Virus genome (UHGV): UHGV-1372970
Direction: 5' to 3' (one strand)
DNA length: 64,000 nt
From: a virus
A program made the position numbers and the translations under genes. This document shows positions 12,023 through 58,289 of this stretch, piece by piece. Each line of letters begins with the position of its first letter. The first letter of the stretch is position 1. The notes beneath the pieces are model-generated. The model saw only the letters and a program-made list of their open reading frames with translations, was not told the DNA's origin and made no database searches.

Positions 12023-12088
12023 GTGATTTCCTTTGTTGTTAATAGCTTTATTAATTTTTGGTTATGATAGATAAGCAATCACTTATTA

Positions 12089-12693: not shown

Positions 12694-12828
12694 AGTAAAC
12701 CATTACTTATCATTTGGTATTTGATAATAGCACGAAAAAGCAGGGTGTTGATGCAAATATGGTTATCTGTAGATGTTTGATATAGGGTGTACAATAATCC
12801 AACATTACAGTCGCTTAAGGACGGTACG

Positions 12829-13224: not shown

Positions 13225-13301
13225 TAGCCGTCTATAAATGTTAGGTATATCTGATTGCCTGCTTTAAAACTCATACTCGTGTCACTTACGGCTATATATA
13301 G

Positions 13302-14591: not shown

Positions 14592-14770
14592 CCTTGAAAA
14601 ACATATCTGGCTTTATATCTTGGCTATAGGGAATTGATTCATGTGTGCTACTAATATCTGTTTTTTAAAACATTCTGATGTAACCGTATTGACTTCTGGC
14701 ACAGAGTCGTCTGTTAGACTTTACTCTGTGCCATAGGTGAGTTAACTCAGAACTGAGCTAATGTATTTTG

Positions 14771-16350: not shown

Positions 16351-16420
16351 GTGTTTTCCTTTGTTAGAAAAACAAGCTGTTTACGTGTTTAGAAAACAAC
16401 TTGTTTTCACATGTTACTTA

Positions 16421-40465: not shown

Positions 40466-40637
40466 TTTTCATCTCTACTGTCGCCTGAAGACGTTTATTT
40501 TCTTCACGCTGATTTTTAATTTCAGCCGCACGACGAGCAGAGCGACCGCCTAAAATGTATGCCCCAAGGAGTACCGCAATGACGGCCGTAGCCGTCATCA
40601 CGAACGCTTTGACATGGGCGATTAAGCCTTCAATCAT
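40386..40637 (-). CDS. i-spanin (Rz-like)
   Basis: N-terminal TM plus coiled coil. Overlaps Rz1. Confidence 0.6.
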   Translation of the reverse strand: MIEGLIAHVKAFVMTATAVIAVLLGAYILGGRSARRAAEIKNQREENKRLQATVEMKNEATSKVRRMGDSVVDAELAAHWMRD

Positions 40638-41347
40638 TGCGCCACACCTCGCTGATACTTCCGAACCTGGGAAATAGCAATGAATACCGCCACCGCAATT
40701 GTGGCAATACCGAACACAATGCGGATCGTATCGCCACTGGTCATATTCCCTTGAGCCTTATCCATCGCCGCGCTGATCTGCGGAGCGGCGTCAGCCAGCT
40801 GCGCCAGGCCAATGCCTGCCGTCATCGTTGCGCCGGCTGTTTCCTTAGTGACAGGAATTGAGCCTGTTTTCTTAACCGGCTTCACGACACCAGCGCGACG
40901 GAGGCCTTCCTCGATCACATCCAGGTTGTACCAGGTGTTCTCAGTACGTAGTGGGCCTTTGCCGTTTTCATGGCGAATAATCGCCTCCACGGTCGGTCGC
41001 ATGATTTCGTACTGATGGAGGTCGATTTCCATATCCGGGGAGACGCCTACCGCTTTAGCGACAGCTTGAACATAGGCTTCGGTGTCGTTTTCACTCGGCG
41101 GCGCCCATCGTTCAACGACCTCGCGGATCGTGTCGATGCGAGAACCGTCCTTCGCCTTCCGCTTGTCGTGGTAGGTGATGAGTGTGACGGCCAGCGCACG
41201 CACACCCCACGTTGGATCTTTGAAGGTGGCAAAGCGAGGCTCTGCCGGGTTGTTAACCAGACCTTGCCACGGATTCGTGTTATCAAGGTTGCCTGGGTTG
41301 TTGTTGCGTATTCCTCTTGGAGTCATCCTTTTCCCCTTAGTTTCCAA
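40634..41347 (-). CDS. putative peptidoglycan hydrolase/endolysin-like protein with a C-terminal TM segment
   Basis: Positioned between the holin-like gene and the spanins. N-terminal RNNNPGNL domain not firmly identified. Confidence 0.4.
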   Translation of the reverse strand: METKGKRMTPRGIRNNNPGNLDNTNPWQGLVNNPAEPRFATFKDPTWGVRALAVTLITYHDKRKAKDGSRIDTIREVVERWAPPSENDTEAYVQAVAKAVGVSPDMEIDLHQYEIMRPTVEAIIRHENGKGPLRTENTWYNLDVIEEGLRRAGVVKPVKKTGSIPVTKETAGATMTAGIGLAQLADAAPQISAAMDKAQGNMTSGDTIRIVFGIATIAVAVFIAISQVRKYQRGVAQ

Positions 41348-41733: not shown

Positions 41734-43278
41734 CTACTCAAAATGAACAAATGTGCGTAAATCTCTGTTCTCAGCTCTGAGTTCGCTAATCTCCCGCGAC
41801 AATACCTGGATAGCACTTAAGGCGTCCATCAACAAAGGATTGGAGTCCAGCACAAGTTTTTCAATTATCTCCTGATGTTCTGATTCAATTTCATTACCTT
41901 CATCATCCTTTATGGCTGGGTGGTTTACCACACCTTTACTCACCTTCACGTAGCACGGGTCAATTTTCTGAAGCTGCTGAGCAATCACACCTCGACGCTG
42001 GCGCCCGCTCTCGTCATCGTTATAGATGAAAGTAACTAGTTTCATGGCATTGATATTACTCAACGACTTCATGCCATCTGTGGGCTTAATATCATGCTTG
42101 AGGTTTTTGTCTGAAGTTGCGGCCCACGCTACATCACCTCGCTGACTATTCCAGATCATTCCGTCGCTGCGATGATGCCAGTATTGTACGGGCGCACCAT
42201 ACCCTTTGACTTGGGTAACGAGACGGTGGTTGTTTCCGACATGCTCTTCAAACCAAAAATTCCCCCCTGCCTGACCGTTCGAGTCCGCCCCTATCGTAGC
42301 AAATTGAGTGGTTAATTGCGGAGCAACCCTTATTTCCCCTAAATTCGCAGAGGGATCATTGTCGTACTGTGCTATGATGCCGGCACGACTAGCGGCACGC
42401 ACATATAAATCGGCTTTAATACCCTGCTGAGAGCGAATATTTTTGGCAACTCGAATACTGCACTCGAACCCTAATGCGACCGGGTCATCCGCAATAATTC
42501 GGTGAGTATAGTCTGCCGTGCTATTCCCATAATGGAAGTCGATAAACGGTGTTGTATAGGAAAGCTCAATGCTTCTGGCGCTAACACCTCCATCCGTGAA
42601 GTTGGCGTTTTTCTTACCATTAATATTCCCCAAAATATCAACATCGCCAGAGCTATTAACACCAAATATTTCGGTCTGGACATCTGTAGCAGATATCCGG
42701 TCATTAGCGCTTTTGACAACAGAGAATCGCGTAGATTTCCCGACCATGAGTTTTCCCCATGTTCCGTTTTTCTTAACCAGCCCTATATCAGCGTTCTTGC
42801 CGAGAATAAAACCGGCGTCGTCGCTATCCACACTCTGTGTTCCAGTAAAATTATTCCCACCGGCAATGCTGGCCATCCCTTTAATCGCTGGTACAGTGAC
42901 AGACTTACCCGTCATGGGGTCTGTTAACGTTATATTTCCACTTCCCGTCAATGCCGCTGACCAGCCCTCAACGACACTACGCCAAAGAGAGAACACGCTG
43001 GCGAGTTGATTGGCAAAAGCTGACGTGCTGGCCGTCTCTGACGTGATAATGCCATAGGACGCCCCAGAGAACGCTGTCGTGATGTTTCGGGTAAGCGTCA
43101 GTTGCGTATCACTGTCGACGGATTTAATCGCGTACAAGTCCGCGCCCCCGCTCCGATACACGACAAGAATGGAACCCTGTTGAACGCCAAGAGCTGTCTG
43201 CGACCACTTAGTCGTTACACCGGTCACTTTCGCCTGATTTGCGGCGCCGGTTACGGTGCCTACTTCATACATACTCAT
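41734..43278 (-). CDS. side tail fibre with C-terminal intramolecular chaperone (peptidase S74) domain
   Basis: C-terminus DVAWAATSDKNLKHDIKP... matches the endosialidase/T5 pb1-type auto-cleaving chaperone. Confidence 0.65.
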   Translation of the reverse strand: MSMYEVGTVTGAANQAKVTGVTTKWSQTALGVQQGSILVVYRSGGADLYAIKSVDSDTQLTLTRNITTAFSGASYGIITSETASTSAFANQLASVFSLWRSVVEGWSAALTGSGNITLTDPMTGKSVTVPAIKGMASIAGGNNFTGTQSVDSDDAGFILGKNADIGLVKKNGTWGKLMVGKSTRFSVVKSANDRISATDVQTEIFGVNSSGDVDILGNINGKKNANFTDGGVSARSIELSYTTPFIDFHYGNSTADYTHRIIADDPVALGFECSIRVAKNIRSQQGIKADLYVRAASRAGIIAQYDNDPSANLGEIRVAPQLTTQFATIGADSNGQAGGNFWFEEHVGNNHRLVTQVKGYGAPVQYWHHRSDGMIWNSQRGDVAWAATSDKNLKHDIKPTDGMKSLSNINAMKLVTFIYNDDESGRQRRGVIAQQLQKIDPCYVKVSKGVVNHPAIKDDEGNEIESEHQEIIEKLVLDSNPLLMDALSAIQVLSREISELRAENRDLRTFVHFE

Positions 43279-43325: not shown

Positions 43326-46300
43326 TTAGAAAATACCCATTCTCACTCGGAGACGGTTGTTCGAGTCGTAAACTTCAATCTTACCATTGGAGATGGTCGT
43401 TCTGGCACTTCCCGACCCGGTGCCGTTAATCTCCATCGTGCCGTTTTTACCGATCCTCCAACCAGACTGGCCGCTGGAGTAGTTGCTCGACTGAAGATCC
43501 CCTACCTTGGCGTTGGTAATAGAGCCGTCTTTGATGTAAGCCGCGTTCATATAGGTGACGCCATTATCGATAACAAACGGCGTCGTGGTGCTGCCATTCG
43601 CGGTATTGATTAAAGCGAACCTGTCAGCCTGAACTAAGAACTGGCTTTGCAGACTTTTGCCGTCGACACCGAGAGCAATGCCGGCCGCATACTTCTGTCC
43701 CGCGCTGTTCGTTTCCATCTTCACCATCCAGGTACTGTTCAGCGAGTCGTTATTTGAAACGGCTTCCTGAAGTACCTGGATAGATGCGGTCTGGTTATTC
43801 AGAGTCGCGGTCATGTCGGTCTGGCTCTTAGCAACGGCACTCAACTGAGTGGCCTGAGTGGCCTGAGTCGACTTTATGGTTGCCACACTGGTCATAGTGC
43901 TATTCAGATCAGCCTGATTTGCAATGTTGGCCGACGCCTGAGCACTGATCTGAGACTGAAGACTCGTGTTTAAAGACGCCTGTGTGCTCTGGCTGTCAGA
44001 TATGGTCTTAGACAGCTGATCAACCTTCGACGTTGCCCCATCAACCTTCGACTGCATGGAAGACAGTTGCGACGTTTGGGCTGTCACTTTTCCGTCGATG
44101 TCGCTGACCTTCGTCTGCAACGATGAGATTGCCGTTGCGTTTGCATCCGCCGTAGCCTGTGCATCCGCAGCATCAGTGATATCGGTAATGACGAAATCAT
44201 CAATGTACGCCGCGTATCCAGGTGTGTTGGAGCCATTCTGACCACGAGTAGAAACCCATACATGGCTACGGGTTACGCTCGGACCCAGCTTCAGCACGCC
44301 ACTGAACTTGACCCACTGATCGCGTGCGCCAAGGCCTGACTCGTTGAACGTAATGCCCTGCCAATCGTTCGCACCATCTTTGTTGATCGAGTGCAGACCA
44401 ACGGCCACAGACCAGCCAGACGGCGGGGCTTCACTTGCCGGCATCATAGCCCAAAACTCAACGCGATATTTCGCGCTCTGGCGCACCGCAGAATAGGAGC
44501 CGATCGTCTTGTCTGCATTCCCACCAGTATTGGCCGGACGAATAACTTTCAGACATTTGCTGCCGGTGCTCTTGAAGTCCGTCGTTACAACCGCAGTGCT
44601 GCCGCCCAACTGCTGATTGTTGTCATAGGTTTCGAAAGTACCGTCGATCCACGGGTTACTCTGGACCTTCAGCGTATTCAGGCTACTCTTCAGGTCAGTG
44701 ACACTGCCACTCGCAGAAGACAAGTCTTTACCTTGCTGAGTAACCGTGTTCTGCAGTGACTGAAGAGCCGAAGCGTCGGCCTTGCCAGAAACCTTGTTAT
44801 TCAACGAATTAAGGCTATTGCTCAGATTCGTGATACTCCCGGTGTGACTGGAAACAGTACCCTCCGCACTGGTAACTCGCGAAGTCAGACTAGCAACCGC
44901 ATTGCTCGTCGCGTCGATGTTCACTATGTCAGTGATATCGATGAAGTAAAAATCATCGAAATACTGATTACCTGATTTTAGGGACGAGTTGATAGAGACA
45001 CCAACACTGCCAGATACCGTCGCCTTCCAAGTCCCGGAAATCTCCTTCCAGGTCGAGTCAGTGGGAAGGTCTGCCGGCTTAAACTGGAAGTCAACGAGCA
45101 GAGACGAGTTGCCGATACGCAGTTTGTTATTGCCCTGATTATCGACAACGGAGCCAGACTGACAGCGAGCAAACACGCCGATTTTGTAGGTGCGATCTTT
45201 CGTCACTACGATGCTTTGGGAGACTGCCCCCGTACCGGTCCCACATGACAGGATCTTACTTCCCGAATTTGGAGACTGAGCATTAATAACCGTAATGAAT
45301 GAAGCGCCGCCACCGAAGCCTTCCAGACCGCGCTCAAACGATGAGTTGGTCAGAAGGTTTCCAATGATTTTTTTCGACGCGTCGCTGTCCGCAACCAGAT
45401 TGGCAAGTCCGGTATTCGTGGCACTCAGGCTGTTCTGCAGGTTGGTGACATTACCGCTCTGCGTGGAAATATCCTTACCTTGCTGCGTTACCGTGTTCTG
45501 CAGTGACTGAAGCGCAGTTGCGTCAGCTTTCTTGCCGATGTTGCTGTTCGCTGTTGCCAGTCCATTCTGGAGACTCGTGATTGCGCTACTGGACGAGGTA
45601 ATATCTTTACCTTGCTGCGTTACCGTGTTCTGGAGTGTGGTAATCGCCGATGCGTTTGCATCTGCTTTCATCATCACGCCACCAGCTGCCCCAAGCCCCA
45701 TCATTACGCCGTTCACGAACTCAACAGAGGTCGAGACAAATGCGCTCTGATCACTACCAGTAGGCGAACGAAGCTCCAGACCGTCACCTGCCTTCATGCC
45801 CTTACGGCCAAGCAGGATGTAGGCGCCGCGATAAGGCAGCGAGGCGAGAACCTCACTCGTTCCGCCGAGTAACTCAATAGCGGCATAAACACTTGAGCGA
45901 GATCCCGTAGGCTCATCGTATGTCATTACACACGCATAGACACCGTTGGCCAGCGCTGCAATGTCATCCGACATTGTTTTGCCGTTATTGGCAGAACCAA
46001 AAACGTCATACGTCTTGCTGGTGTCGATGGAAGTCGAACCATCGCTATTTGCTTTAAACGTTACCAGCGCATAGCTACGGCCAGGGGCAAACACTTTTAC
46101 CCCGGACTCGTCAAAAATCCCGTCCTTCGCGCTGGATCCATTCCCTCTAGAAGTAATGGTAAACACTGTGCGACGAGTCAGAGACGCCTGAAGAGATGTC
46201 ACATTGGCATTCGATGCAGTAATGTCTTTACCCTGCTGGGTTACGGTATTCTGCAGCGTTTGCAATGCGGAAGCATCCGCCTTTTTGCTTACGTTTGCGT

Positions 46301-49300
46301 TGGTCGTGTTCAGACTATTTTCGAGGCTGGTGGTCCTCGTTCCCTGCGAGGTAATATCCTTGCCTTGCTGCGTTACGGTATTTTGCAACGTCTGCAACGC
46401 GGAGGCATCAGCCTTTTTGGAAACGTTCGAGTTCGTTGTGTTCAGGCTATTTTGCAGACTGGTCAACGCCGTTCCCTGTGATGAAACAGTCCCTTCAACA
46501 TTACTCACTCGTGAAGTCACTGACTGAATCGAAGAGCTGTTTGCCGCAACAGTGGTCTGCAACGAAGACAGATCGGCAGAAGCAGCGAGGTCAGTCGGGG
46601 CCGGGGACCATTCAGTAGGCATGTTGCCTACTTCCATCTTCGGAGCGCTAACATAAACTGTCTGATCAGCCGTCGTCGATGCCTCTATACGAGCAATGAT
46701 CAGTCGTTTTGCGCCAGTGCCCGGTTTCTGCTTCCACTTGACCCAATAACGAACCCATTCAGTTGTCAGAGTGAATACAGCACGGCCATCAGTATTTGAA
46801 GCCTTAACGCCCTGGCTGGTTTCAGAGGATCCCGTCGTGTTCGGGTTATAGAAGAATGCCGTCATTGACTGTCCATCTACACCACCTTTTGCATAGAAGC
46901 TGTAGACATACTCTGCATTATCGACAGGCGCATCGATACTGACCTCCTTGAGATCTCTATATGAGCCGCCGGCTTTAATCGTCGCACCACTTACCGCATT
47001 GCCGCGGAAAGTCTCACTAATCTTACTGCCCCAACCATCCATGGTGCCAGACAGTGAAATAAGGTTTGTCCCGCCAACGGAAACATTGCTCAGCGAGTTG
47101 GAAAGATTGGTCAGACTGTCGCTTTGGGTCGACAGATCTTTCCCCTGCTGGGTTACGGTATTCTGTAACGTTTGCAATGCAGAAGCGTCAGCCTTTTTGC
47201 CGATATTGGTATTGGCGGTGCTTAACCCGTTTTCAAGAGCGGTCGCACGAGCACTAACGCTGCTAACGTCTTTACCCTGCTGCGTAACCGTTGATGTCAG
47301 CGAGTCGACGGCTTTCGATGTCGCGTCAGCGGTGCTTTGCGCTGCCGCAGCCGCAGTGATGTTGCGCATGTGCCAGTCAGTCACGTACCAGACTGTACCA
47401 AACGGGCTGGACTGGTTTATTTGCAGGAACGGACGGAGGTACCCTTTGTCCGCGGCAGACTGCGGGACAGTCACCTTCCATGTAACTCGTTTCCAGGTCG
47501 ATGTCGTCTTAGTATTCCCACCAGTGTAGAGAGGGCTTGCAATTCCACCTGTTGGCCCGTTGGCGGTACCAATGTAGAGGTTGAAGTCAGCTGAACCCGC
47601 TCCACATGCCACCAGCGCAGAAATTTCAAATACATCACCAACTGTCGCAACAATCGTGTTGAAATTCGGGTGGTGGTCGCGAGCAGCCAGTTTCGCCGCG
47701 TATTTGAATGGACATCCAGCTGGCACACCGTCAGAGTCCGTAGAAACGACAGTAAAGCCCATACTGTCATACTGAACATCAAACGTTGGGTTAGGGACCA
47801 GCTCGCCGCTTGTCGCGTTACCGGCGCGAATTGCAGCATTCAGAGATTTCACACTGCTGTTCGTCGCTGTGATATCGCTTTCGGTCTTAGTCACACGCCC
47901 TGTCAGAGAGTCGACGGCGGACTGTTCAGCTTTCTTCGCAACTTTGGCATCAGTAGAGCTGAGACTATTCTTCAGGCTTGTGATGCTATCGCCCTGGCTG
48001 GTTAGCGCGTTACCTTGTTGGGTCACTGTATTTTTCAGTGAGGTCATTGCGCTGGCCTGTGCGTCGATCGCTTTCTCGTTCGTGACATCGACAAGGAAAA
48101 CATCATCGAGATAGAGATATCCTGCACTCAGGCTCGCTCGCAGAGAAATTAGCAATGTGACATCTGCTGCAGGCGTGTACTCACTGCTGACCATCCCCCA
48201 ACCGGTACTAACGCCATTTACGGAGATAAACAGATCCTGAACCGGGCCAGAGTCAGTCCTGATGCTAATTTTGGTGTTGTTTGTATTGGAAATCGCCATA
48301 TCGCTAGATTTGCGAACCCACGCACCAAACCGGTATGTCTTTCCAGCTTTCAGAGAGATGGACTGATCGCAAGAGAGATCACCGGACGCCAACTTTGACG
48401 CCTGAATGATATAGCTCCCAGACTTCGGTGCTTGCGCGGCCAAAGTGGTCCACCCGGTGTTATTCCATCCATCAAACCAACGCTCAAAAGAGTTATTTTT
48501 GAGCATGTTACCCGGATTAACTTTCGAGGCGTCGGCATCAGCATTGGCGCTGTTCAGTGAATTATTAAGCTGAGTCAGGCTATCACTTTGGCTTAACACT
48601 TTGCCTTCAGTTGAGCTAACACGACTAGCCAGACTGCTTACTGTCGACGCATCGGCTTTCTTCGCAACATTGCTGTTTGTCGTATCGAGTGACGATTTCA
48701 GACTGGTGATATTGCTGTTGGCGGCAGTAATATCCTTGCCTTGCTGTGTAACCGTGTTTTGCAACGCCTGCAGCGCAGAGGACTCAGCCTTTTTACTCAC
48801 ATTGGCGTTGGTGGTGCTCAAGTCGTTTTGCAACTTGGTCACAGCAGCGCCCTGGGATGTGATATCAGTACCGTTCTTTTCAACGGTAGAGTTCAGTGTC
48901 TGAATCGCAGACGCGTTGGCGTCGGACAGCTCCTGAGTATTGTAGGCGTCGGTCACTTCCGTGAGCACAATGTTGTCAATCAGGAACGAATCACCGGCTT
49001 TAACCGTTGATACGTTCGGCACTGAAATTCGAGCCATAGCCTGCTTTACGCCGCTCTTGGTCAGCTTAAGATAGCCAGAGACTTTAGTCCATGATGTCGC
49101 GGAAAGGTCTTTTACTGCCTTTGTCAGCGATGGCCATTGCCAGGAGTCATCCTGATACTGAACAGACAGACCGACAGTGATTTGGGTGTTCGCGGCCATA
49201 TTCGCTTTATTCGCGTCAAGCTTCACCCAATATTCGAGATAGAAGACTGCATTATCTCTGACCTGGAAACTGCCGAAGATATGGTTGTCGCTGTTATCTG

Positions 49301-52300
49301 TAGAATTAGGGTTGTAGTCATTCGGGCGAGTAACTCGAATGCACTTGCCACCACCCTGCGCGTCATCCGTGGTGACGATTACGCGGTTGTTCGACAGATT
49401 ATAGCCATTGCTATAACTCTCAAATGTCCCATCAGGCAAAATGTTGGCGCCACGCTTTGACTGCTGATTCAGAGAGCTATTGAGAGATGTAATCGCGTCA
49501 CTATTGCTTGAGACCCCATTCTCCGTATTGGTCACGCGAGTGGTCAGCCCATTAAGCGCCGTCGTGTCCGCTTTCTTAGCAACGTCGCCTTTGACGGTAT
49601 TGACAGTATTATTCAGGGTTGTGAGTGAACTACCCTGGCTGGTCAGCGTCTTGCCCTGCTCTACGACCGTATTCTGCAACGTCTGCAACGCAGAAGCGTC
49701 TGCCTTCTTCGACACGTCGGTCTTCGTAGACGTCAGGTCGTTCTGTAGCTTAGTGATCGACGTTCCCTGAGAACTAATCGTGTCACCTTGCTTGGTCACT
49801 TTCGTGGACAGATCGCTCAACGCGCTGGCCGTCGCATCATTATTGACTGCGTCAGTAATATCGAACACTTGGAATGAATCGATCCAGATTTCCGCATTAC
49901 TTGGATGGCAGTAGATGCCAAAGGCCTGGCCATCCGCACCAGTGCTCGGGGAGAAGGGTGTATCCCATGTGATAGTCTGCCAGTCGCTCGTCAGCGTGAC
50001 GTTTTTATCTTCGTAATTACCCTCGACAGACCCGTTAAAGTTCCAGCGGCGCAGAAGCATGTTCATCGAGCCTGAAACACCCTTGGCGCGAACGATATAG
50101 CGGAATTTGCGAGAACCATTTACCGGGACAGGTTTTTTACGGTTAGCAAAAAGCCCCGGAGATGTAGAGTTCACTCTGACCATGCGGACGCCGGAGGAAT
50201 TTTCACCATAGGCGCCAAATTCTACGAGGCTTCCGGTCGGGACACTGTTCTTCTGAGTGCCAAATGCTGAGCCGTCACCGATGAGATCAGCATCCTGAAC
50301 CAGATTATCGCCCATGTTCAGCATGGCATTGACGTTGTTGTTCAGGCTAGTAATAGAATCGCCGGCTGAACTGATGTCCTTACCCTGCTGTGTAACGGTA
50401 TTTTGAAGCGATGACAGCGCGGCTGCGTCAGCCTTCTTAGCTACATTTGCGTCGGTCGTCTTGAGGCTGTTCTCAAGGCTAGTGGCACGGCTACCAACAC
50501 TGGTCAGATCCTTGCCTTGCTGGGTTACGGTATTCTGCAGCGATGATAAAGCTGTGGCATCCGCTTTCTTTGCAACGTTGGCATTGGTGGTGCTCAGGTT
50601 GTTCTGCAGGCTTGTAATGCTGCTTGAGGCTGAAGCAATGTCTTTGCCCTGCTGGGTAACCGTATTTTGCAGTGTCTGGAGAGCTGCGGCGTCCGCTTTT
50701 TTCGCGACGTTCGCGTTGGTCGTGTCCAGATTGTTTTTCAGATCCGTAATGCTGGTGGACTGCGACGCAATGTCTTTACCCTGCTGGGTTACGGTATTCT
50801 GAATAGATGACAACGCAGATGCATTGGCGTCGATATTGACGCTATCTGTCACATCGATGACATAGAAATCATCAAAGTAGCGGTTTCCTGCCGTCAGATA
50901 GTTGTTAAGCGTCACCGGCAAACTAGCCGTCTCGGTCGCCTTCCAGCGTCGGCTGAATTTAGTCCAGTCACCGGATACGCCGGTAAATGGCAACTCGAAC
51001 ACCGGATTGCCGGCGCTGCTGCCTACACGGAGTTTGTTATTTCCACTGCCATTATCCGTCGTGCCTGAAATCTGCTTAACCCATACCCCGATCTCATAAG
51101 TGCGGTCTTTGACGAAATCAATATTCTGACCCGGCGCGATGCTGCCCGGATCGATCTTCAATGCGCGAGTACCAGTATGCGGGGATTGAACCTCAACAAC
51201 CGTGCTCTTAGAGCCAACGCCGATATACCCATCAAATCCACGCTCAAAAGATGGGTTTACAATAAGGTTGTTTGGAGTCTTCGCAGAAGCATCAGAATCG
51301 GCAATTGCGTTACTCAGTGAGTTATTCAGCTGGACGATGCTGTCTGCCTGACTGGACACCTTGCCCTCGGTTGCGCTAACACGAGATGTCAGATCATTGA
51401 CCGCCGTCGCGTCGGCTTTCTTCGCAACATTGCTGTTTGTCGTATCAAGAGACGTTTTGAGGTTAGTGATACTGCTATTCGCGGCGGAAATATCTTTACC
51501 CTGTTGCGTCACTGTTCCCTGCAGTGCGGTCAGCGCTGTCTGGTCGGCCTTTTTACCAACATTGGCGTTGGTGGTGCTCAGGTCATTTTGCAGTTTGGTG
51601 ATCGACTGACCCTGGGTGGATATATTCGAACCCTGTTGATCCACTGACGTCTTCAGAGTCTGCAATGCAGAAGCGTCAGCTTTACCCTTCAGCGAAGATT
51701 TAAGACCAGTGATATCCGACGCCATCGCGCTGTCCTGAGTGTTCAGGGTGTCGAGCGACTTGTTGATGTTGGAAACGCTGTCGTTAACTTTCGTTTCAAG
51801 AGACTGACGGGCCGCTGCTTCTGCTTTATCAGCAGTCACGCGAGCCTGTTGCTCCTGGAAAATCAGACCAGAGCCGACTTTAGCCAGGTCACTCCCTTCG
51901 TAAGACCCGCGCATCTGGACAGCCAGAGTGTTTCGGCTCGCAGCTTCAGCAGCATCAGCGTCAACACGAGCGGCCTTTTCTTCCTGCAGAGCGGCCATGC
52001 CAGCGCCAGGGGTCGGGCGACCTACCGCAATCCAGTCAATCAGAAGATAGTTAGCATCATTCTGACCTTTCAAAAAATCGAGACGGAGACGGCGAATGGT
52101 CGTGGAGGAACGCCAGTCGATGTCGTGGAGAGACAGCGTGGCAATGCCATTTGCATCATACTCAGGCTCATCGAAAGAGATAGAACGCGAATCGGACCAC
52201 CCCTGCTCAGACGCACCAATCCAGTACAACTTACCAGCCCATACTGGATTACCGACCTTCTTAATACGCAGTTTGATGAAGCGATAAGCGTTAGCGTCAA

Positions 52301-55300
52301 TGGCCATGTTGTTCGGCGAACGGCACGAAGATGTGCTGTTCGCGGACTTCAGCCAGCCATCGCTGGTCACGTTCATCGGCACGCTACTGCCATCGTCTTC
52401 AGTCCAGCCTTCGTTATTGGTATCGAAATACCAGATGTTCAGACTATCAAATTGCTCACCGGTGCCGGCCGCGATCTGAGAGATCTGTTGCGCCATCGAC
52501 TCATTCGCTGTCTGCATTTGAGTGGAGAGATTACTAATCTCAGACTGGCGGTTGTTTTTCTCCTGCAACAACCCATCAGCTCGAGCGCGAGCCTCGCTTT
52601 CCATGTCCGCAATTCGACTTGATGTTTCAGCCGTGATGGCATTTGCCGTCTTCGTATCCAGAGTAGAAACGGCGGTCGCTCGGTCGCTGACTTCTTTCTC
52701 GATTTTGGCATTGAGAGAGGTAGCGGAGTCGCTAATAGCTTTAGCTCGGTTACTAGCCTCAACTGCTACAGAGTCAGAAATGGCAGAGGCGCGGGCAATG
52801 GCCTCATCAGACACCGCTTTAGCTCGCGCTGAGGCCTCGTCTGAAATTGCTTTGTTACGAGCGTCAGCCTCACCAGAGATTGCAGCAGCGCGGGCGGTTG
52901 CTTCGTCTGAAACAGCCTTAATCCTTGCAGACGTCTCATTAGAAACAGCCTGAGCACGTTTACTGGCCTCGTCCGCCACTGCACTTGCTCGATCCGTTAT
53001 CTCTTTGTTGATCGCGGAGTTCAGCGTTTTTTTCGCATCACTGATCGCATTGGCGGACTCAGTACGAGCGTCATTAACCTGGGAAGTTGCCTGGCTTTTG
53101 GCTTCGTCGATTGCGGCGTCAACCTCAACGGCAACAGCCTTGCTGTCTATGTCAGCAATCAGATCCTTGCCCAGCTCTGACTCCGTGATTTTGTTCTTCA
53201 GGAACGAAAGTACATCACGCGTCGTTGCGGTTGTTGCAAGAGACGAGTTTAGAGCGCTGAGCATCCCGCGTTTGTTGGCTGCGCGTACCCAATAATACCA
53301 GGTGGCAGAATCTTCAAGACCGTTATGGCTAAACGTCGTCCCGCTAACTTTTGCGATGACCTGAGCTTTTGCCTTATCGTTAATCTTGGACGCCAGCACC
53401 TCAATGTGGTCTAAGTCCACAGAAGACGGGTTGATCCAATTCAAAACGATTGAACGGTAGTCGCCTACAGCGGTCAAGCCAGTAGGTGCAGCTGGAGCTG
53501 ACAGTGTGCCAAGCACTTTGTAGGTGATGCTGATAGGATCAGTCTTCCTGCCCCCAACGGAAACAGCGTACACCTGAAAATCGTACTGCCCGTCTTCAGC
53601 GACATCACGGAGTTCGAATTGCTCTTCAGTGACGCGCTGGGATTGCCAGTTAGAAACGTTACCAGCGTCAGAGCGGCGCCAGCTGACATAATACTGTGCT
53701 GATTTCCCCTGCCACGCGGCAGTTAACGATACGGACAAGTTGCCCGGAGAAGACAGGTAAGTACCTTCTGTCACTGTCAGACCGGACGGCTTTGAGAAAG
53801 TCGGATCGAGGACAGTTGTATTTTGCGGGATCAGCTGTGCGCCGTTGTCGATGGCTTCGTATTTGGTCGGATTGTTCTGGATGGCCGTAATGTTAAACGA
53901 CGTCCCGTCCGTGCCTTCAGCAACGCTCACGACGCGTGCCTGAAGCGGAACCAGATCAGGTTGTGCGATTACCCATACAGCATCAGCAACGGGCGTTTCT
54001 GCCGATGTGAGGGCGGTTTTAAACGTCACAGTGGAAACATTCTTACCATTTTCCAGAATGTCACGCTCAACCATCTTACCCTCTGAACTCAGGAAGGTGA
54101 TGTGATTTCCGACGGACGTCAAATCTACAGGCGAATCCAGCTTAACGCTGTTAGCAGTATATCCAGTGATTCGGCCGCTGTTGCGTCTTCCAGCACGGAA
54201 TTTATCAGCGATAAGAACCACATCACCAGGCATCAGGAATACTGAATCCATGCCTACAGAGTAAGTGATAACATCGGACTCCATGCGGGACGTGTAAAGC
54301 GTCCAGAGACCAACACGGTGAGCCTGGCCCCGTGAAGTACAACCAAAGGCGACGGATTCGGTTTTACGGATGCCGTATCGCTTAATTGCCTCCTGGTCTT
54401 CAACGTACTCTACACTTTGCTTGTAGCCATCTTCCTTGTTGTTGTAGGTGATGAGTGCAACGGAATAGCGGTCTTTTCGGGCCGAGCCTTTGTAGACGAA
54501 AGAGCCGTTAACCACGTTGCTGTTAGAGAACAGCATCACCGGGTCAGCTGGGGAATCCTGCGTGACGTGAACCATGCCACCAGCCCAATAAACCATGCCA
54601 CGGAATGCCCCTGCGATGTCCTGCACGACGCGATAAGCATCTTGGCGACTGGTAATCTGGGTGTTGATAGCGAAACGCTTCTCTTGGCTACCGAAGCCAT
54701 CATCAACGAACGCATCACAGTAGCGGCCGATCTGATACAACTCGCCAATGTTTATCATTGACTCTTTAACGAACTCGCCTAAGCCATAACGGGTATTCGT
54801 TAACAGGTCAAAAAGGATCCATGCCGGGTTAGAAGTTGATGCCAGCTTAAACGTGCCATCCCAATTGCCGTCGTAGGTATTGGTGTCAGCGTTGTAGTTT
54901 GACGGTACGCGGATCTTCATACCTTTAATCAGGTATGAACGAGTCGGCATAGACGAGCCGAATTGCTCTGAGTTGATTTTCAGGCCAGCCAGAACAGAGT
55001 TCGGATAGTTCAGGCTGGTGTTGACGATTTCACCAATAGAATCGATGTAGGTGTCGTCGTACAAATAGCTGTCGTCTTTATGGTCTTCGGTCAGACGAAT
55101 TGCACGCAACGTGTAGGATTTGGCCGGCTTCGGCAAATCAAACACATAGCTGCGGTAATAAACGCCTGTCTTTTTGGCGGTCAAAGTAATGATCGACGCG
55201 TCTTCGCCTTCGGCTATCGCATCAACAAAACCTTTTCCATTTCCCGAATCAATCTGGAATTTGTACTGAACGGTTGTGCCGTTTGTATCTCCGTTTTTCT

Positions 55301-55760
55301 TGTCGATTTTGCGAAGTGACGGGAATTTCATAACAACGCGAACACGATCGCTGTCAGCGGAGTCCAGAGAAACGTTAACCTGGCTCGTTTGCTTCAGCTG
55401 CATCCCAACCGACTTTGGCGTCTCGATGAAGTCGAAGCCATCGATAACAGTCTGATCCTGAGAGCCGTCCCGGAACCACCAGGTCACACCGCTGAAGTTA
55501 TAGGAACCGTCAGCGTTCTGAAGCGGCGTGTCGTTCAGGAAAATGGATTTCGCACCATCAACCAGACCACCGACAACACCCTCCCCCAATAAATCCAGTA
55601 CAGAAGCCATAGCACGGCTATTTACCGTGTCATTGGCCTCTACTGGCGTTCTTGCGCTACCGCCTCCTTTACTTCCACCACGGCCTGAGATAATCAGACC
55701 ATGAGCGACGAGTTGAGAAAGACGGGATTTTTTAAAAACTGAAGCTTCCATGCATCCCAC
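43326..55760 (-). CDS. giant central tail fibre / host-specificity protein, lambda J-like ends with a ~3000-aa repeat insertion (4144 aa)
   Basis: N-terminal ~880 aa align to lambda J, including KITESELGK. The last ~230 aa match J's WAVKIE..YVAGI..SQFLVAANRIA region. Confidence 0.8.
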   Translation of the reverse strand: MGCMEASVFKKSRLSQLVAHGLIISGRGGSKGGGSARTPVEANDTVNSRAMASVLDLLGEGVVGGLVDGAKSIFLNDTPLQNADGSYNFSGVTWWFRDGSQDQTVIDGFDFIETPKSVGMQLKQTSQVNVSLDSADSDRVRVVMKFPSLRKIDKKNGDTNGTTVQYKFQIDSGNGKGFVDAIAEGEDASIITLTAKKTGVYYRSYVFDLPKPAKSYTLRAIRLTEDHKDDSYLYDDTYIDSIGEIVNTSLNYPNSVLAGLKINSEQFGSSMPTRSYLIKGMKIRVPSNYNADTNTYDGNWDGTFKLASTSNPAWILFDLLTNTRYGLGEFVKESMINIGELYQIGRYCDAFVDDGFGSQEKRFAINTQITSRQDAYRVVQDIAGAFRGMVYWAGGMVHVTQDSPADPVMLFSNSNVVNGSFVYKGSARKDRYSVALITYNNKEDGYKQSVEYVEDQEAIKRYGIRKTESVAFGCTSRGQAHRVGLWTLYTSRMESDVITYSVGMDSVFLMPGDVVLIADKFRAGRRNSGRITGYTANSVKLDSPVDLTSVGNHITFLSSEGKMVERDILENGKNVSTVTFKTALTSAETPVADAVWVIAQPDLVPLQARVVSVAEGTDGTSFNITAIQNNPTKYEAIDNGAQLIPQNTTVLDPTFSKPSGLTVTEGTYLSSPGNLSVSLTAAWQGKSAQYYVSWRRSDAGNVSNWQSQRVTEEQFELRDVAEDGQYDFQVYAVSVGGRKTDPISITYKVLGTLSAPAAPTGLTAVGDYRSIVLNWINPSSVDLDHIEVLASKINDKAKAQVIAKVSGTTFSHNGLEDSATWYYWVRAANKRGMLSALNSSLATTATTRDVLSFLKNKITESELGKDLIADIDSKAVAVEVDAAIDEAKSQATSQVNDARTESANAISDAKKTLNSAINKEITDRASAVADEASKRAQAVSNETSARIKAVSDEATARAAAISGEADARNKAISDEASARAKAVSDEAIARASAISDSVAVEASNRAKAISDSATSLNAKIEKEVSDRATAVSTLDTKTANAITAETSSRIADMESEARARADGLLQEKNNRQSEISNLSTQMQTANESMAQQISQIAAGTGEQFDSLNIWYFDTNNEGWTEDDGSSVPMNVTSDGWLKSANSTSSCRSPNNMAIDANAYRFIKLRIKKVGNPVWAGKLYWIGASEQGWSDSRSISFDEPEYDANGIATLSLHDIDWRSSTTIRRLRLDFLKGQNDANYLLIDWIAVGRPTPGAGMAALQEEKAARVDADAAEAASRNTLAVQMRGSYEGSDLAKVGSGLIFQEQQARVTADKAEAAARQSLETKVNDSVSNINKSLDTLNTQDSAMASDITGLKSSLKGKADASALQTLKTSVDQQGSNISTQGQSITKLQNDLSTTNANVGKKADQTALTALQGTVTQQGKDISAANSSITNLKTSLDTTNSNVAKKADATAVNDLTSRVSATEGKVSSQADSIVQLNNSLSNAIADSDASAKTPNNLIVNPSFERGFDGYIGVGSKSTVVEVQSPHTGTRALKIDPGSIAPGQNIDFVKDRTYEIGVWVKQISGTTDNGSGNNKLRVGSSAGNPVFELPFTGVSGDWTKFSRRWKATETASLPVTLNNYLTAGNRYFDDFYVIDVTDSVNIDANASALSSIQNTVTQQGKDIASQSTSITDLKNNLDTTNANVAKKADAAALQTLQNTVTQQGKDIASASSSITSLQNNLSTTNANVAKKADATALSSLQNTVTQQGKDLTSVGSRATSLENSLKTTDANVAKKADAAALSSLQNTVTQQGKDISSAGDSITSLNNNVNAMLNMGDNLVQDADLIGDGSAFGTQKNSVPTGSLVEFGAYGENSSGVRMVRVNSTSPGLFANRKKPVPVNGSRKFRYIVRAKGVSGSMNMLLRRWNFNGSVEGNYEDKNVTLTSDWQTITWDTPFSPSTGADGQAFGIYCHPSNAEIWIDSFQVFDITDAVNNDATASALSDLSTKVTKQGDTISSQGTSITKLQNDLTSTKTDVSKKADASALQTLQNTVVEQGKTLTSQGSSLTTLNNTVNTVKGDVAKKADTTALNGLTTRVTNTENGVSSNSDAITSLNSSLNQQSKRGANILPDGTFESYSNGYNLSNNRVIVTTDDAQGGGKCIRVTRPNDYNPNSTDNSDNHIFGSFQVRDNAVFYLEYWVKLDANKANMAANTQITVGLSVQYQDDSWQWPSLTKAVKDLSATSWTKVSGYLKLTKSGVKQAMARISVPNVSTVKAGDSFLIDNIVLTEVTDAYNTQELSDANASAIQTLNSTVEKNGTDITSQGAAVTKLQNDLSTTNANVSKKAESSALQALQNTVTQQGKDITAANSNITSLKSSLDTTNSNVAKKADASTVSSLASRVSSTEGKVLSQSDSLTQLNNSLNSANADADASKVNPGNMLKNNSFERWFDGWNNTGWTTLAAQAPKSGSYIIQASKLASGDLSCDQSISLKAGKTYRFGAWVRKSSDMAISNTNNTKISIRTDSGPVQDLFISVNGVSTGWGMVSSEYTPAADVTLLISLRASLSAGYLYLDDVFLVDVTNEKAIDAQASAMTSLKNTVTQQGNALTSQGDSITSLKNSLSSTDAKVAKKAEQSAVDSLTGRVTKTESDITATNSSVKSLNAAIRAGNATSGELVPNPTFDVQYDSMGFTVVSTDSDGVPAGCPFKYAAKLAARDHHPNFNTIVATVGDVFEISALVACGAGSADFNLYIGTANGPTGGIASPLYTGGNTKTTSTWKRVTWKVTVPQSAADKGYLRPFLQINQSSPFGTVWYVTDWHMRNITAAAAAQSTADATSKAVDSLTSTVTQQGKDVSSVSARATALENGLSTANTNIGKKADASALQTLQNTVTQQGKDLSTQSDSLTNLSNSLSNVSVGGTNLISLSGTMDGWGSKISETFRGNAVSGATIKAGGSYRDLKEVSIDAPVDNAEYVYSFYAKGGVDGQSMTAFFYNPNTTGSSETSQGVKASNTDGRAVFTLTTEWVRYWVKWKQKPGTGAKRLIIARIEASTTADQTVYVSAPKMEVGNMPTEWSPAPTDLAASADLSSLQTTVAANSSSIQSVTSRVSNVEGTVSSQGTALTSLQNSLNTTNSNVSKKADASALQTLQNTVTQQGKDITSQGTRTTSLENSLNTTNANVSKKADASALQTLQNTVTQQGKDITASNANVTSLQASLTRRTVFTITSRGNGSSAKDGIFDESGVKVFAPGRSYALVTFKANSDGSTSIDTSKTYDVFGSANNGKTMSDDIAALANGVYACVMTYDEPTGSRSSVYAAIELLGGTSEVLASLPYRGAYILLGRKGMKAGDGLELRSPTGSDQSAFVSTSVEFVNGVMMGLGAAGGVMMKADANASAITTLQNTVTQQGKDITSSSSAITSLQNGLATANSNIGKKADATALQSLQNTVTQQGKDISTQSGNVTNLQNSLSATNTGLANLVADSDASKKIIGNLLTNSSFERGLEGFGGGASFITVINAQSPNSGSKILSCGTGTGAVSQSIVVTKDRTYKIGVFARCQSGSVVDNQGNNKLRIGNSSLLVDFQFKPADLPTDSTWKEISGTWKATVSGSVGVSINSSLKSGNQYFDDFYFIDITDIVNIDATSNAVASLTSRVTSAEGTVSSHTGSITNLSNSLNSLNNKVSGKADASALQSLQNTVTQQGKDLSSASGSVTDLKSSLNTLKVQSNPWIDGTFETYDNNQQLGGSTAVVTTDFKSTGSKCLKVIRPANTGGNADKTIGSYSAVRQSAKYRVEFWAMMPASEAPPSGWSVAVGLHSINKDGANDWQGITFNESGLGARDQWVKFSGVLKLGPSVTRSHVWVSTRGQNGSNTPGYAAYIDDFVITDITDAADAQATADANATAISSLQTKVSDIDGKVTAQTSQLSSMQSKVDGATSKVDQLSKTISDSQSTQASLNTSLQSQISAQASANIANQADLNSTMTSVATIKSTQATQATQLSAVAKSQTDMTATLNNQTASIQVLQEAVSNNDSLNSTWMVKMETNSAGQKYAAGIALGVDGKSLQSQFLVQADRFALINTANGSTTTPFVIDNGVTYMNAAYIKDGSITNAKVGDLQSSNYSSGQSGWRIGKNGTMEINGTGSGSARTTISNGKIEVYDSNNRLRVRMGIF
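44000..53100. repeat. degenerate ~111-bp tandem and dispersed repeats inside J
   Basis: More than 20 copies of CTGCTGCGTTACCGTGTTCTGCAG-like units. They also generate the LPCCVTVFC artefact ORFs on the plus strand. Confidence 0.75.
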
Positions 55761-55762
55761 CG

Positions 55763-56374
55763 TTAAATCTGGTCAATCGTGATAGAGGAACTTGCGATCT
55801 GAGAACCAACGAGAATTTCTTCGCCGTAGTTCAGCTGGACCGGGTTTCCTTGGTTAGTTGTGTTTTGTGGCCCGTCGAAATAGAACGAGTCGGAGTTATC
55901 CGCCTGTCTTACTTCCGGGTTTTTGGCTTGAGGCGAGAGGATTTGGGCAAGGCCACCCATCATCAAACTCATACCGGCGCCGATTAGCGCTGTTGATGTG
56001 CCAGCAGTAATCCCCGAGGCTAATGCGCCAACGGCAACCATCACCGCGCCTACCACGACCTGCACATAGCCAAGAGCGTTCCCGCCTCGTCCTTTCGGGA
56101 TAGGTGTAATGCGGATCTTCTCAACGTCTTTACTCGCGCCGCGCATCATGTATTCGGTTTCGTCAACCGACCATGTGACGCCGCTTTTAGTGGTGATCTG
56201 AACGTGATAGCGGTCGTAGGCATTAGCGTTGCGACGAATCCAGGCGCCAAGGCCCGGCTTATTTGCGTCAATCAGATTGATGGCTTGCGCGGCATTGGAC
56301 GCGCGAAGATGCCAGTGACGGCCGAAACGCTTTGCCAGCGCTCCGCCGAGCTGAACATGAACTAATTCAGACAT
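55763..56374 (-). CDS. tail assembly protein, lambda I-like
   Basis: Gly/Ala-rich hydrophobic middle like lambda I. Overlaps the K stop. Confidence 0.7.
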   Translation of the reverse strand: MSELVHVQLGGALAKRFGRHWHLRASNAAQAINLIDANKPGLGAWIRRNANAYDRYHVQITTKSGVTWSVDETEYMMRGASKDVEKIRITPIPKGRGGNALGYVQVVVGAVMVAVGALASGITAGTSTALIGAGMSLMMGGLAQILSPQAKNPEVRQADNSDSFYFDGPQNTTNQGNPVQLNYGEEILVGSQIASSSITIDQI

Positions 56375-57195
56375 TTTTCATTCCCTGTTAATAACGCCTG
56401 ATGGCGCAAATGATGCGTCGTATTTTTCTGATACATGCCGCCGTAGGTGGCGTGGCCACTTAAACGGTCAATCTGGTGATGCAGGATCCGGTTGTCACCG
56501 ACATAAACAGCGCAGTGATCTGGCATCTTTCCGTACTGGATAAAGAAGATGTCGCCTTTCCGCGGCTCTTCCCTAGGCGCCAGGCGGACGAGATTTTCGT
56601 TGCGATAATTCAGATCGAGAATGTCTTCGTCGCCCAGATACCATGACGGAATATGCAGGTGGGCATTGGCATTAATCTCGACGTCGAACTCTCGCTTCAG
56701 GTAGTCACGACACAGCATCCAGCAATCGAAAATGCCAAAGACATAAGGGCGACCGGTGTACGGCATCTCGAAACCACCCGGCGTAATTACTTCCATCTCG
56801 CTTAAACGGAACTCGGCCTCAATGTCCGGGTTCAGGTTCTTTGTGACGGAAAGAATTAGCCATGGCAGTTCAGTCGCTTCGCAGCCGGCACGATCAGCGT
56901 CCGAGGGATTCGGGGAACGGTCAGTGTGGCTATGCCAGATTGCAACAACCTCACCTTCGTCTTCAGCAGCAATCACATCTTCGTGATGCATAACGAACTC
57001 ATTGACCGGGTCTTCAGAGACGTTTCTCGCTTCAATAAAGCGATACTTTTTCTCCGTCGTCTGGACAATGAAACCGCACGCTTCATTCGGGTAACGGGCA
57101 ATTGCGCACTGATACAGCGACTGCGTGAACAGTGAGCCGCCGATCGATTCAATATCACGAAACACGAGTGGCCCCCGGAAACCCGCCAAACGCAA
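56362..57195 (-). CDS. tail tip assembly protein, lambda K-like (JAB/MPN + NlpC/P60); probable GTG start near 57165
   Basis: YPNEACGFIVQ and WHSHTDRSPNPSDAD (JAMM) motifs. Cys/His NlpC/P60 half. Confidence 0.8.
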   Translation of the reverse strand: MRLAGFRGPLVFRDIESIGGSLFTQSLYQCAIARYPNEACGFIVQTTEKKYRFIEARNVSEDPVNEFVMHHEDVIAAEDEGEVVAIWHSHTDRSPNPSDADRAGCEATELPWLILSVTKNLNPDIEAEFRLSEMEVITPGGFEMPYTGRPYVFGIFDCWMLCRDYLKREFDVEINANAHLHIPSWYLGDEDILDLNYRNENLVRLAPREEPRKGDIFFIQYGKMPDHCAVYVGDNRILHHQIDRLSGHATYGGMYQKNTTHHLRHQALLTGNEKCLN

Positions 57196-57859
57196 TCACC
57201 CCGTTGGCAAAGAAGTTCTTCCTTGCCTTGCACGCATCCAGTCGCTTAGTGCAGTAGTCGTCGCTCAACTTAGAGGTTTGATTGTTGTCCTTGTCGAAAT
57301 ACGGACCGCTGTACCCACACTCCGCGCCACGATAATTCCACGGGCAGCTGTTTTTGATGATCTGACGCGCGGGCAGCTGAACCCCCATCAGGTCAAAAAC
57401 ACTGGATAGCTCAAATTCAACGCTCTCTTTGGTTTCTAACGTCTTCTGTTCCACGAACCATATTTCGTCCGGGAAGTGCTGAGAGGCGTCGGCGGTGGGG
57501 TTTCCAGCAGTAAAGTTAGAAGCATCAAGAAAACGCACCAGCGTGCGCCGGCGAGTGATGGTGCAACCAACCAGATCATCATTTGCGAGAACTTCGGCCG
57601 AGATTGCGCCCCCATAGTTAGAGACAACAAGCTTCGGTCGGGGCAATGTCCCGGAGCCTGTTTTATCGAAACCGCTGGCTTTAATCGGCCACGGCTTATA
57701 CTCGACCCCCTGCCAGATTACAGACGTGCCGAGTTTGTTCGTTCCTGCGTGGAAGAAGCTCTTCCCGCCTGAAGTTGTCACGGCCATATCAAGCTCAAAA
57801 AGCTCGATAACCGCGGAGGGTGACAACCCTTGAATTTCCGTGCGAATACTCATACTCAT
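57155..57859 (-). CDS. minor tail protein, lambda L-like
   Basis: Similar across its length to lambda L (WQGVEY, CPWNYRGAECGYSGP). Confidence 0.8.
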   Translation of the reverse strand: MSMSIRTEIQGLSPSAVIELFELDMAVTTSGGKSFFHAGTNKLGTSVIWQGVEYKPWPIKASGFDKTGSGTLPRPKLVVSNYGGAISAEVLANDDLVGCTITRRRTLVRFLDASNFTAGNPTADASQHFPDEIWFVEQKTLETKESVEFELSSVFDLMGVQLPARQIIKNSCPWNYRGAECGYSGPYFDKDNNQTSKLSDDYCTKRLDACKARKNFFANGVIAFGGFPGATRVS

Positions 57860-57907
57860 CCTTGAGTGCGAAACAAAACCTTATATTAATAAGTAAACAC
57901 TTACTTA

Positions 57908-58243
57908 TCAAGCCTCAAAAACTTGTCTAAGGGTACAAGTGATCTCCAAGTACCCTGGATACCGCTTAACAGTATGGGAATCACACACGCAGATAATTTT
58001 TTTATTGCGGGGTGTTGTCCAGAAGAACGACTCTACCGCCCCTCGCGCCATCAAGAAATCGTCAATGGCATTGCCGATCGCGTAAGGCTGTCGGAAGGTC
58101 AGAGACCATTCTTCTTTTATGCGGTTTAAACCCTGTGACTGGCGCTGCTCGTAGTCGTCGCCAAATTTCAGGACAGTAACTTCAGGCTTTATGGTTTTCT
58201 CAGACTCGAAGTCAGGGAACCAGGTGAATGTTTGTCTAGCCAT
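57908..58243 (-). CDS. minor tail protein, lambda M-like
   Basis: Matches lambda M (FGDGY, ESFFWTPP). Confidence 0.75.
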   Translation of the reverse strand: MARQTFTWFPDFESEKTIKPEVTVLKFGDDYEQRQSQGLNRIKEEWSLTFRQPYAIGNAIDDFLMARGAVESFFWTTPRNKKIICVCDSHTVKRYPGYLEITCTLRQVFEA

Positions 58244-58289
58244 TTCTCTTCCTTGAGAAACTGCCTACGTCCTGTAGGCAGTATTTTTG

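Follow-up and report, generated by a model that had tools for sequence, protein, structure and literature searches.

A J-family tail-tip protein with an array of predicted helical repeats and lectin-like modules from a putative Klebsiella oxytoca phage-plasmid

The 64,000-nucleotide stretch of viral DNA analysed here (the window; virus genome UHGV-1372970) carries on its minus strand, at 43326..55760, the gene for a very large relative of the tail-tip protein J of phage lambda. The gene is a single unbroken reading frame of 4,144 codons that begins with GTG; the corresponding RefSeq protein, WP_053003253.1, is started at Met4, giving 4,141 amino acids (aa), and is labelled 'phage tail protein'. 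The whole gene is 99.9% identical to its counterpart in the Klebsiella oxytoca CAV1099 plasmid pCAV1099-111 (NZ_CP011594.1; 111,395 bp, circular), which we regard as a pKpn/SSU5-related phage-plasmid, following the classification in PMC9600943 and PMC7969092. The protein can be divided, from its N-terminus to its C-terminus, as follows.

53145..55760 (-), aa 1-872: J/TipJ hub region, ending at the KITESELGK helix (BLASTP, Pfam)
52401..53144 (-), aa 873-1120: proximal alanine-rich helical stalk of 11-residue repeats of the type AVSDEAxARAK, read from the translation
51936..52400 (-), aa 1121-1275: globular module G0
44145..51935 (-), aa 1276-3872: cassette array of nine cassettes, each with 2-4 helical units followed by a module of 154-175 aa
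43779..44144 (-), aa 3873-3994: distal helical segment, with one degenerate repeat unit (3873-3913, E 3e-6) followed by a Ser/Thr/Gln-rich helix
43326..43778 (-), aa 3995-4144 and the stop codon: distal tail-tip fibre domain (Pfam Phage_Tail_Tip, PF09327, 3995-4124, E 1.7e-39)

Both ends of the protein are homologous to lambda J. Residues 26-872 align with residues 2-836 of lambda J with 33% identity over 847 aa (BLASTP, E 2e-121), in agreement with a preliminary description of the locus, made from its sequence, in which about 880 N-terminal residues had been matched to J. The hub contains the Pfam domains FNIII-A_GpJ (PF24801, residues 113-247), Phage-tail_3 (PF13550, 370-532) and fn3 (657-742), and its matches among PDB sequences include the F2-pyocin fibre 25vf, 9l9p and lambda J itself (8iyk). 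Near the C-terminus, residues 4005-4077 align with lambda J 857-931 with 42% identity (BLASTP), and the distal 216 residues, from aa 3927, align with the chain annotated as 'J central straight fiber domain' in the PDB (9ze4_N). The two sequence anchors that had been quoted as bounding the extra sequence, KITESELGK and MVKMETNSAGQKYAAGIALG, are both present in the translation, and the insertion of about 3000 aa proposed between them is confirmed: the gap between the hub and tip stretches measures ~3,130 aa here versus ~20 residues in lambda J. The C-terminal match is likewise present, but it extends over ~130-150 residues (Phage_Tail_Tip, 3995-4124) and not over the ~230 originally given.

The resemblance to lambda gpJ (1,132 aa; 8iyk, 9e7m) thus comprises a homologous hub of ~840 aa (33% identity), the Phage_Tail_Tip domain and a position in the gene order after the homologues of H, M, L, K and I. 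Unlike the window protein, lambda gpJ ends in the LamB-binding domain Ig_GpJ_C (PF12421; lambda J 1001-1132). This receptor-binding domain is absent from the window protein by Pfam, as had been noticed earlier, and the chain stops 20 aa past PF09327. The NCBIfam model lambda_TipJ gives a score of 535 bits, below its cut-off of 1,950 bits. The protein is a J-family relative and not the orthologue of lambda J itself.

The principal repeat of the insertion has a length of 44 aa (132 bp) rather than the ~37 aa (~111 bp) first reported, as indicated by TRF (period 132), by a repeat hidden Markov model (HMM) and by the spacings between repeats, which are multiples of 132. The HMM, which was built from 16 KKAD-anchored units, detects 25 significant units between residues 1359 and 3913 with E values from 3e-6 to 7e-25, where more than 25 copies had been claimed; the periodicity itself is evident in the TRF period, the HMM units and the spacings alike. 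The units fall in ten blocks of 1-4 units with nine globular modules (G1-G9) between the blocks. At a higher level, the repeating element is a cassette in which 2-4 units precede one module; B1+G1, for example, is colinear with B4+G4. The DNA copies of the repeat had been described as nearly identical in places. They are in fact diverged, with an in-register identity of 48% on average and 73.5% at most, best 62-nt cores that are 61-82% identical and a longest exact common stretch of 33 bp. Frequent intragenic recombination driven by near-identical DNA repeats is not supported, given the length of this longest exact match.

The repeat blocks are predicted to be alpha-helical and coiled-coil-like. 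An AlphaFold2 (AF2) monomer model of residues 2281-2651, based on a 32-sequence alignment, has a mean predicted local distance difference test score (pLDDT) of 84.5 and contains continuous helices of 86, 37 and 86 residues. A second model, covering G5-G7, has a pLDDT of 60 and again displays long helices, one of which has 133 residues. Across the models, helices of 86-133 residues are predicted at pLDDT 75-91. Hydrophobicity has its main period at 3.64-3.68 residues both in the proximal stretch, where the peak lies at 3.68 and proline is absent, and in blocks B1-B3; blocks B4 and B7 show ~3.65 residues as a minor peak. This period equals 11/3, and 44 is 4 x 11. No proline occurs among the 1,495 residues of putative helix. 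From the original suggestion of a coiled-coil or beta-helical stalk, the coiled-coil-like helix is retained; the beta-helical alternative was rejected in favour of an alpha helix on the strength of the AF2 helices, the 11/3 periodicity and the lack of proline. Since J is a trimer, the stalk is presumably a parallel trimeric coiled coil. The segmented trimeric coiled-coil fibres of the T4 fibritin type, in which a long alpha-helical fibre carries non-helical insertions, offer a working analogy, although they are not known to be related to the window protein in sequence; the interruptions of fibritin are short loops and its helices are heptad-based, whereas the window protein has 160-aa domains and an 11/3 period. 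Fully extended, a stalk of 1,495 residues would have a computed length of ~221 nm. This value is close to the ~226 nm expected for the tail from the length of its tape measure protein (1,507 aa); the agreement may be a coincidence.

The preliminary description had recognized at least seven interspersed domains of 150-180 aa and had taken them to be carbohydrate-binding beta-sandwiches. The modules are real, and their number is corrected to nine, of 154-175 aa, in addition to G0 upstream of them. The nine modules of the cassette array, with their assignments to carbohydrate-binding module (CBM) and other families, are the following.

50829..51290 (-), aa 1491-1644: G1, CBM_4_9-like (Pfam, 41.6 bits; PDB sequence match to CBM16, 2zex)
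49836..50309 (-), aa 1818-1975: G2, probably a distant CBM-like module (no Pfam match; HHalign to the G1/G8 cluster, 84% probability)
48921..49445 (-), aa 2106-2280: G3, CBM-like, paralogue of G9 (CBM_4_9 17.4 bits, below the cut-off; HHalign 99.6% to G9 and 62% to G1/G8)
48063..48530 (-), aa 2411-2566: G4, CBM_4_9-like jelly roll (Pfam, 41.8 bits; AF2 beta-sandwich with pLDDT >90)
47331..47807 (-), aa 2652-2810: G5, beta-rich with a weak CBM link (no Pfam match; HHalign to G1/G8 57%; AF2 pLDDT 50-68)
46581..47072 (-), aa 2897-3060: G6, predicted beta-sandwich module (AF2 beta strands, pLDDT 60-80)
45660..46163 (-), aa 3200-3367: G7, ILEI/FAM3-like (Pfam ILEI, PF15711, 38 bits against a cut-off of 27)
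44904..45407 (-), aa 3452-3619: G8, CBM_4_9-like, 46% identical to G1 (BLASTP E 3e-44; Pfam, 30.9 bits)
44145..44657 (-), aa 3702-3872: G9, CBM-like, paralogue of G3 (32% identity, BLASTP E 5e-25; CBM_4_9 24.4 bits, just below the cut-off)

The Pfam CBM_4_9 cut-off of 25.9 bits is exceeded by G1, G4 and G8; G9 and G3 score below it, and the scan with this family returned no match for G0, G2, G5, G6 or G7. The structural evidence is clearest for G4, the AF2 model of which was compared with the PDB using Foldseek. The match to CBM16 2zew has an E value of 1.3e-8 and a target-normalised TM-score (TMt) of 0.70, and the matches to CBM16, CBM4-2, CBM61 and a porphyran-binding CBM (2zew, 2zey, 1k42, 2xon and 8xmz) have E values of 1e-8 to 1e-6 and target-normalised TM-scores of 0.63-0.77, those to CBM16, CBM4-2 and CBM61 reaching E about 1e-8 and TM 0.70-0.77. 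A CBM22 is matched as well, and tailspikes of Klebsiella phages have C-terminal domains similar to this model. G4 therefore shares its predicted jelly roll with CBM4/9/16/22 modules such as C. polysaccharolyticus CBM16-1 (2zew) and R. marinus CBM4-2 (1k42) at TM 0.63-0.77, but with an identity of only 15-24%; moreover, it resides inside a phage fibre and not on a glycoside hydrolase, and its carbohydrate binding is a prediction.

The proposal that the modules are CBM beta-sandwiches accordingly stands for G1, G4 and G8 by Pfam, and for G4 also by fold. G0, G6 and G7 appear from their sequences to have folds other than that of CBMs, while G2 and G5 are probably linked to CBMs, weakly. G0 is globular and not CBM-like, has no Pfam match, is 47% identical to the equivalent part of gp21 of phage phiKO2 and gives a weak PDB sequence match to residues 493-619 of the 'Megatron' hub protein 8gtc_M (E 8e-4). 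G6 has no Pfam family and no PDB relative by sequence or profile search; in tblastn searches, genes for PblB-type antireceptors and 'hyaluronidases' of Streptococcus phages and for tail fibres of Enterococcus phages encode a domain with 36-43% protein identity to it. The profile match of G7 to FAM3C (5lc3) is weak (E 0.15), and its AF2 model has pLDDT <50 and no clear fold. The region of G7 and its flanking repeats (45595-46256; nucleotides 9505-10166 of the gene) has ~75% nucleotide identity to tail genes of the virulent 48-kb Klebsiella siphophages RCIP0100, phiKp_7-1 and Haden_MM8, a similarity at the sequence level that suggests exchange of modules between temperate phage-plasmids and lytic phages.

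Full-length homologues in other replicons differ from the window protein in length and in the number of cassettes.

pCAV1099-111 (window gene): 4,144 aa, 9 cassettes
K. oxytoca strain 45 plasmid: 3,480 aa, 7 cassettes
pRHBSTW-00636_4: 4,297 aa, 10 cassettes
pMB7868_2: 4,296 aa, 10 cassettes
pRHB30-C05_4: 4,494 aa, 11 cassettes
phiKO2 gp21: 3,433 aa, 6 cassettes

The same repeat HMM finds 21 units in phiKO2 gp21 and 18-27 units in the four plasmid homologues. When the modules are clustered at 70% identity and each cluster is denoted by a letter, their order reads A C D K E F B H G in pCAV1099-111, A C D I F E J B H G in pRHBSTW-00636_4 and A F E J B H G in the K. oxytoca strain 45 copy. Cassettes have been gained, lost and permuted among the relatives, which carry 6-11 of them, and the domain shuffling that had been anticipated for this gene is supported. 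The hub is 91% identical in related plasmids with a ratio of nonsynonymous to synonymous substitution rates (dN/dS) of 0.04. In comparison with the pRHBSTW-00636_4 copy, the hub and most modules give dN/dS values of 0.04-0.10, and dS ranges from 0.10 (G8) and 0.21 (G9) to >2 or saturation (G5, G1 and G3). Such a range of dS within one gene, combined with low dN/dS, points to a mosaic history under purifying selection. In the same comparison, G8 and G9 (44145-45407) have dN/dS values of 0.24-0.41 at dS 0.10-0.21, against a dS of 1.2 to >2 elsewhere; the low dS and the higher dN/dS suggest a recent exchange of these distal cassettes.

The closest described architecture is that of gp21 of phiKO2 (3,433 aa), a linear plasmid-prophage of K. 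oxytoca, where it is annotated as 'similar to lambda J protein'. It shares with the window protein a J hub, a G0-like module, the 44-aa repeat, the tip domain and six interspersed modules of the same types at 46-65% identity. It differs in its hub, which is only 33% identical and represents a different J lineage, in having six cassettes against nine, in lacking ILEI-like and G2-type modules and in extending ~150 aa past the tip domain. With hubs that are so distant and modules that are so similar, the shaft must have moved between unrelated J lineages.

The gene is also present at 99.7-99.9% identity in three further K. oxytoca plasmid records, in two of which it is full length; in the third, the match wraps round at the start of the record, so that 84% is covered in one place. 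The preliminary description had itself considered an assembly chimera of J and a separate fibre gene. This is ruled out by the near-identical copies in other K. oxytoca plasmid records and by intact homologues in five other replicons, those in independent complete plasmids having 3,480-4,494 aa. A further copy with 99.9% identity, in pCAV1335-118 (NZ_CP011616.1, locus 4010-18085), is cut by a Tn3-like ISPa38 transposon; the break lies after nucleotide 11,085 (aa 3,700) of the J gene and removes the last cassette and the tip domain, so that this sister plasmid carries a natural truncation mutant.

We interpret the protein as the tail-tip central fibre (a gpJ/TipJ homologue) of a ~111-kb phage-plasmid, with an expanded, segmented stalk that bears lectin-like modules for multivalent glycan binding, and assign this reading a probability of roughly 60%. 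The N-terminal 872 aa would form the conserved tail-tip hub and the last ~150 aa a lambda-type straight-fibre tip domain, and the ~20-residue helix at the hub/fibre junction of lambda would have been expanded to a ~3,130-aa alpha-helical stalk of 11- and 44-residue repeats. This stalk would be broken ten times by beta-sandwich modules of 145-175 aa, mostly of the CBM4/9/16/22 lectin type, with one that is ILEI-like and one that is common to PblB-type antireceptors, and a trimer would carry ~30 lectin-like domains on a fibre that could reach ~220 nm. The modules may make many weak, reversible contacts with surface polysaccharide (capsule or O-antigen); these contacts could capture the virion on capsulated Klebsiella and direct to the outer membrane either the distal tip or a binding protein from a separate gene. 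The glycan specificity would be retuned as phages gain, lose, swap and reorder entire cassettes among themselves.

Several observations weigh against this interpretation. Pfam assigns no family to four of the ten modules, and the poor quality of the second AF2 model (pLDDT 60), which gave weak matches only for G5 and G6 in a fold search, leaves the folds of G5, G6 and G7 weakly supported. Mitomycin C induction of a related pKpn-type plasmid, p2 of Kp1604, yielded membrane vesicles and no virions or plaques (PMC8969562), so the presence of the fibre in particles is putative for the pKpn-type group. A 2026 study of temperate Klebsiella phages ascribes specificity to receptor-binding enzymes (PMC13123978), and a literature search found nothing that links proteins of the present kind to capsule specificity.

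A bolder and considerably more tentative extension, which we consider rather improbable as it stands, is that a ~200-nm trimeric rod with ~30 lectin modules allows a depolymerase-free temperate Klebsiella phage to recognize the capsule type and to cross the capsule by multivalent, reversible binding, the set of cassettes being a readable code for capsule or O-antigen. If true, such a code would help to explain the capsule specificity of temperate Klebsiella phages despite the rarity of depolymerases in prophages. The determinants of host range are little understood for temperate Klebsiella phages and phage-plasmids, which spread resistance genes. Should the array serve as a modular device for glycan recognition, the capsule or O types within reach of an element could be predicted from its cassettes, and fibre engineering would have ready-made splice points in the natural cassette boundaries.

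It is also conceivable, but unlikely, that hub, stalk and tip are as described and that the modules are structural or decorative (Ig-like or Hoc-type), stabilizing the fibre or sticking to mucus or environmental polymers, with host recognition left to the distal tip and the separate S74 fibre only. The glycan binding of the modules is deduced from their families and folds, four of the modules belong to no assigned family, the CBM jelly roll also occurs in non-lectin settings such as Cry toxin domains (Foldseek) and a separate fibre gene lies directly downstream. However, the modules are exchanged and reordered between phages and are nevertheless under purifying selection, modules of the same types occur in the antireceptors and tailspikes of other phages, and the family is found mainly in thickly capsulated hosts, Klebsiella and Acinetobacter; these features speak against a purely decorative role.

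Somewhat less likely again is an arrangement with no ~200-nm rod, in which the helical blocks pack back on each other or along the tail tube, the result being a tip that is short, thick and knobbed or else a decoration resembling a sheath. The AF2 models describe a monomer only, with predicted TM-scores (pTM) of 0.47 and 0.29, and they contain a low-confidence linker of ~25 residues before each module; the similarity of the helical length (~221 nm) to that of the tail (~226 nm) could hint at packing along the tail, if it is not coincidental. The 11/3 periodicity and the absence of proline or other breaks within the blocks are instead suited to long parallel bundles, lambda J is established to be a parallel trimer at the same junction (8iyk, 9e7m) and J-type fibres with elongated coiled coils, running from the hub to a beta-helical end, occur in other phages (PMC12143355), all of which favours the extended stalk. 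That the gene is a relic on a plasmid that no longer makes phage particles, encoding a fibre without current function, is highly improbable in view of the selection data (dN/dS 0.04-0.10 at saturated dS): the vesicles formed by p2 of Kp1604 and the transposon in the pCAV1335-118 copy would fit such a loss, but the gene has kept an open frame of 12.4 kb, independent relatives have open frames of 10.4-13.5 kb and related elements of ~110 kb (e.g. vB_KpnS_p4727 and pJN2-26) have been deposited as phages.

The architecture is not new, contrary to what the preliminary description had implied; it is already known from phiKO2 gp21, from PHROG 2589 and from at least 785 protein clusters, and the window protein is a further member of a widespread family, with a function assigned by inference only, and not a new kind of system. 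The profile phrog_2589 (length 3,686) matches it at 3,714 bits in 14 stretches, and prophage proteins of ~4,200 aa homologous to phiKO2 gp21 have been mentioned by De Sousa et al. in 2020 (PMC7784688). In a search of 1.84 billion cluster representatives, 785 match at E <=1e-3 and 155 at E <=1e-30; among the 141 best new representatives, 105 have at least 2,000 aa and the longest has 4,797 aa. The repeat also occurs in open reading frames (ORFs) of 1,590-3,660 aa from Klebsiella, Acinetobacter, Pseudomonas, Pluralibacter and Superficieibacter genomes. A J-type hub is detectable in only about half of those representatives that have a cassette array and reach 2,000 aa, which suggests that the shaft is also combined with different N-terminal anchors, as, for instance, in tail proteins of Acinetobacter phages.

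RBPseg has been used to describe J-type fibres in which a coiled coil of varying length connects the hub to a beta-helical end (PMC12143355). Those of the BASEL collection (TC3, TC4 and TC9) resemble the present protein in their elongated coiled coils and differ from it, by their description, in being far shorter and in that no regular series of CBM-like modules is reported for them; some have a lectin-like head. The literature search, the scope of which did not include the original description of phiKO2, returned no study that dissects the cassette array, its structure or its function. The database homologues are mostly 'partial' proteins encoded on contigs of 1-3 kb. Assemblies from short reads routinely break inside this gene family, which is a practical problem for assemblers, and comparisons of copy number need long-read assemblies.

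The neighbouring genes are consistent with the assignment of the tail-tip gene. A set of lambda-type tail-tip assembly genes (55763..62813, minus strand; Pfam and RefSeq annotation) lies upstream of it, and the J gene is placed after the tape measure, M, L, K and I homologues, as in lambda (Pfam on the neighbouring ORFs; RefSeq). A fibre gene lies downstream.

58290-62813 (-): tape measure protein, 1,507 aa (Pfam TMP_3 and Tape_meas_lam_C)
57908-58243 (-): M homologue (Pfam Phage_min_tail)
57155-57859 (-): L homologue (Pfam Phage_tail_L)
56362-57195 (-): K homologue (Pfam Prok-JAB and NLPC_P60)
55763-56374 (-): I homologue
41734..43278 (-): fibre protein, 514 aa (Pfam Peptidase_S74, PF13884, aa 389-444, E 1.4e-13)

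The product of the downstream gene had been called an S74-chaperoned side fibre. Its Peptidase_S74 domain at aa 389-444 is confirmed, its chaperone region matches the L-shaped tail fibre 8hqz_d in the PDB (E 3e-15) and the protein matches phrog_1980 (tail fiber); a comparison with the N-terminus of lambda Stf found no similarity, and 'side' is a putative label. Further downstream, an ORF of 237 aa (40634-41347, minus strand) is annotated as 'membrane protein' in RefSeq, and its PHROG matches are to endolysin, transglycosylase and tape-measure lytic domain families (phrog_873, E 1.6e-79).

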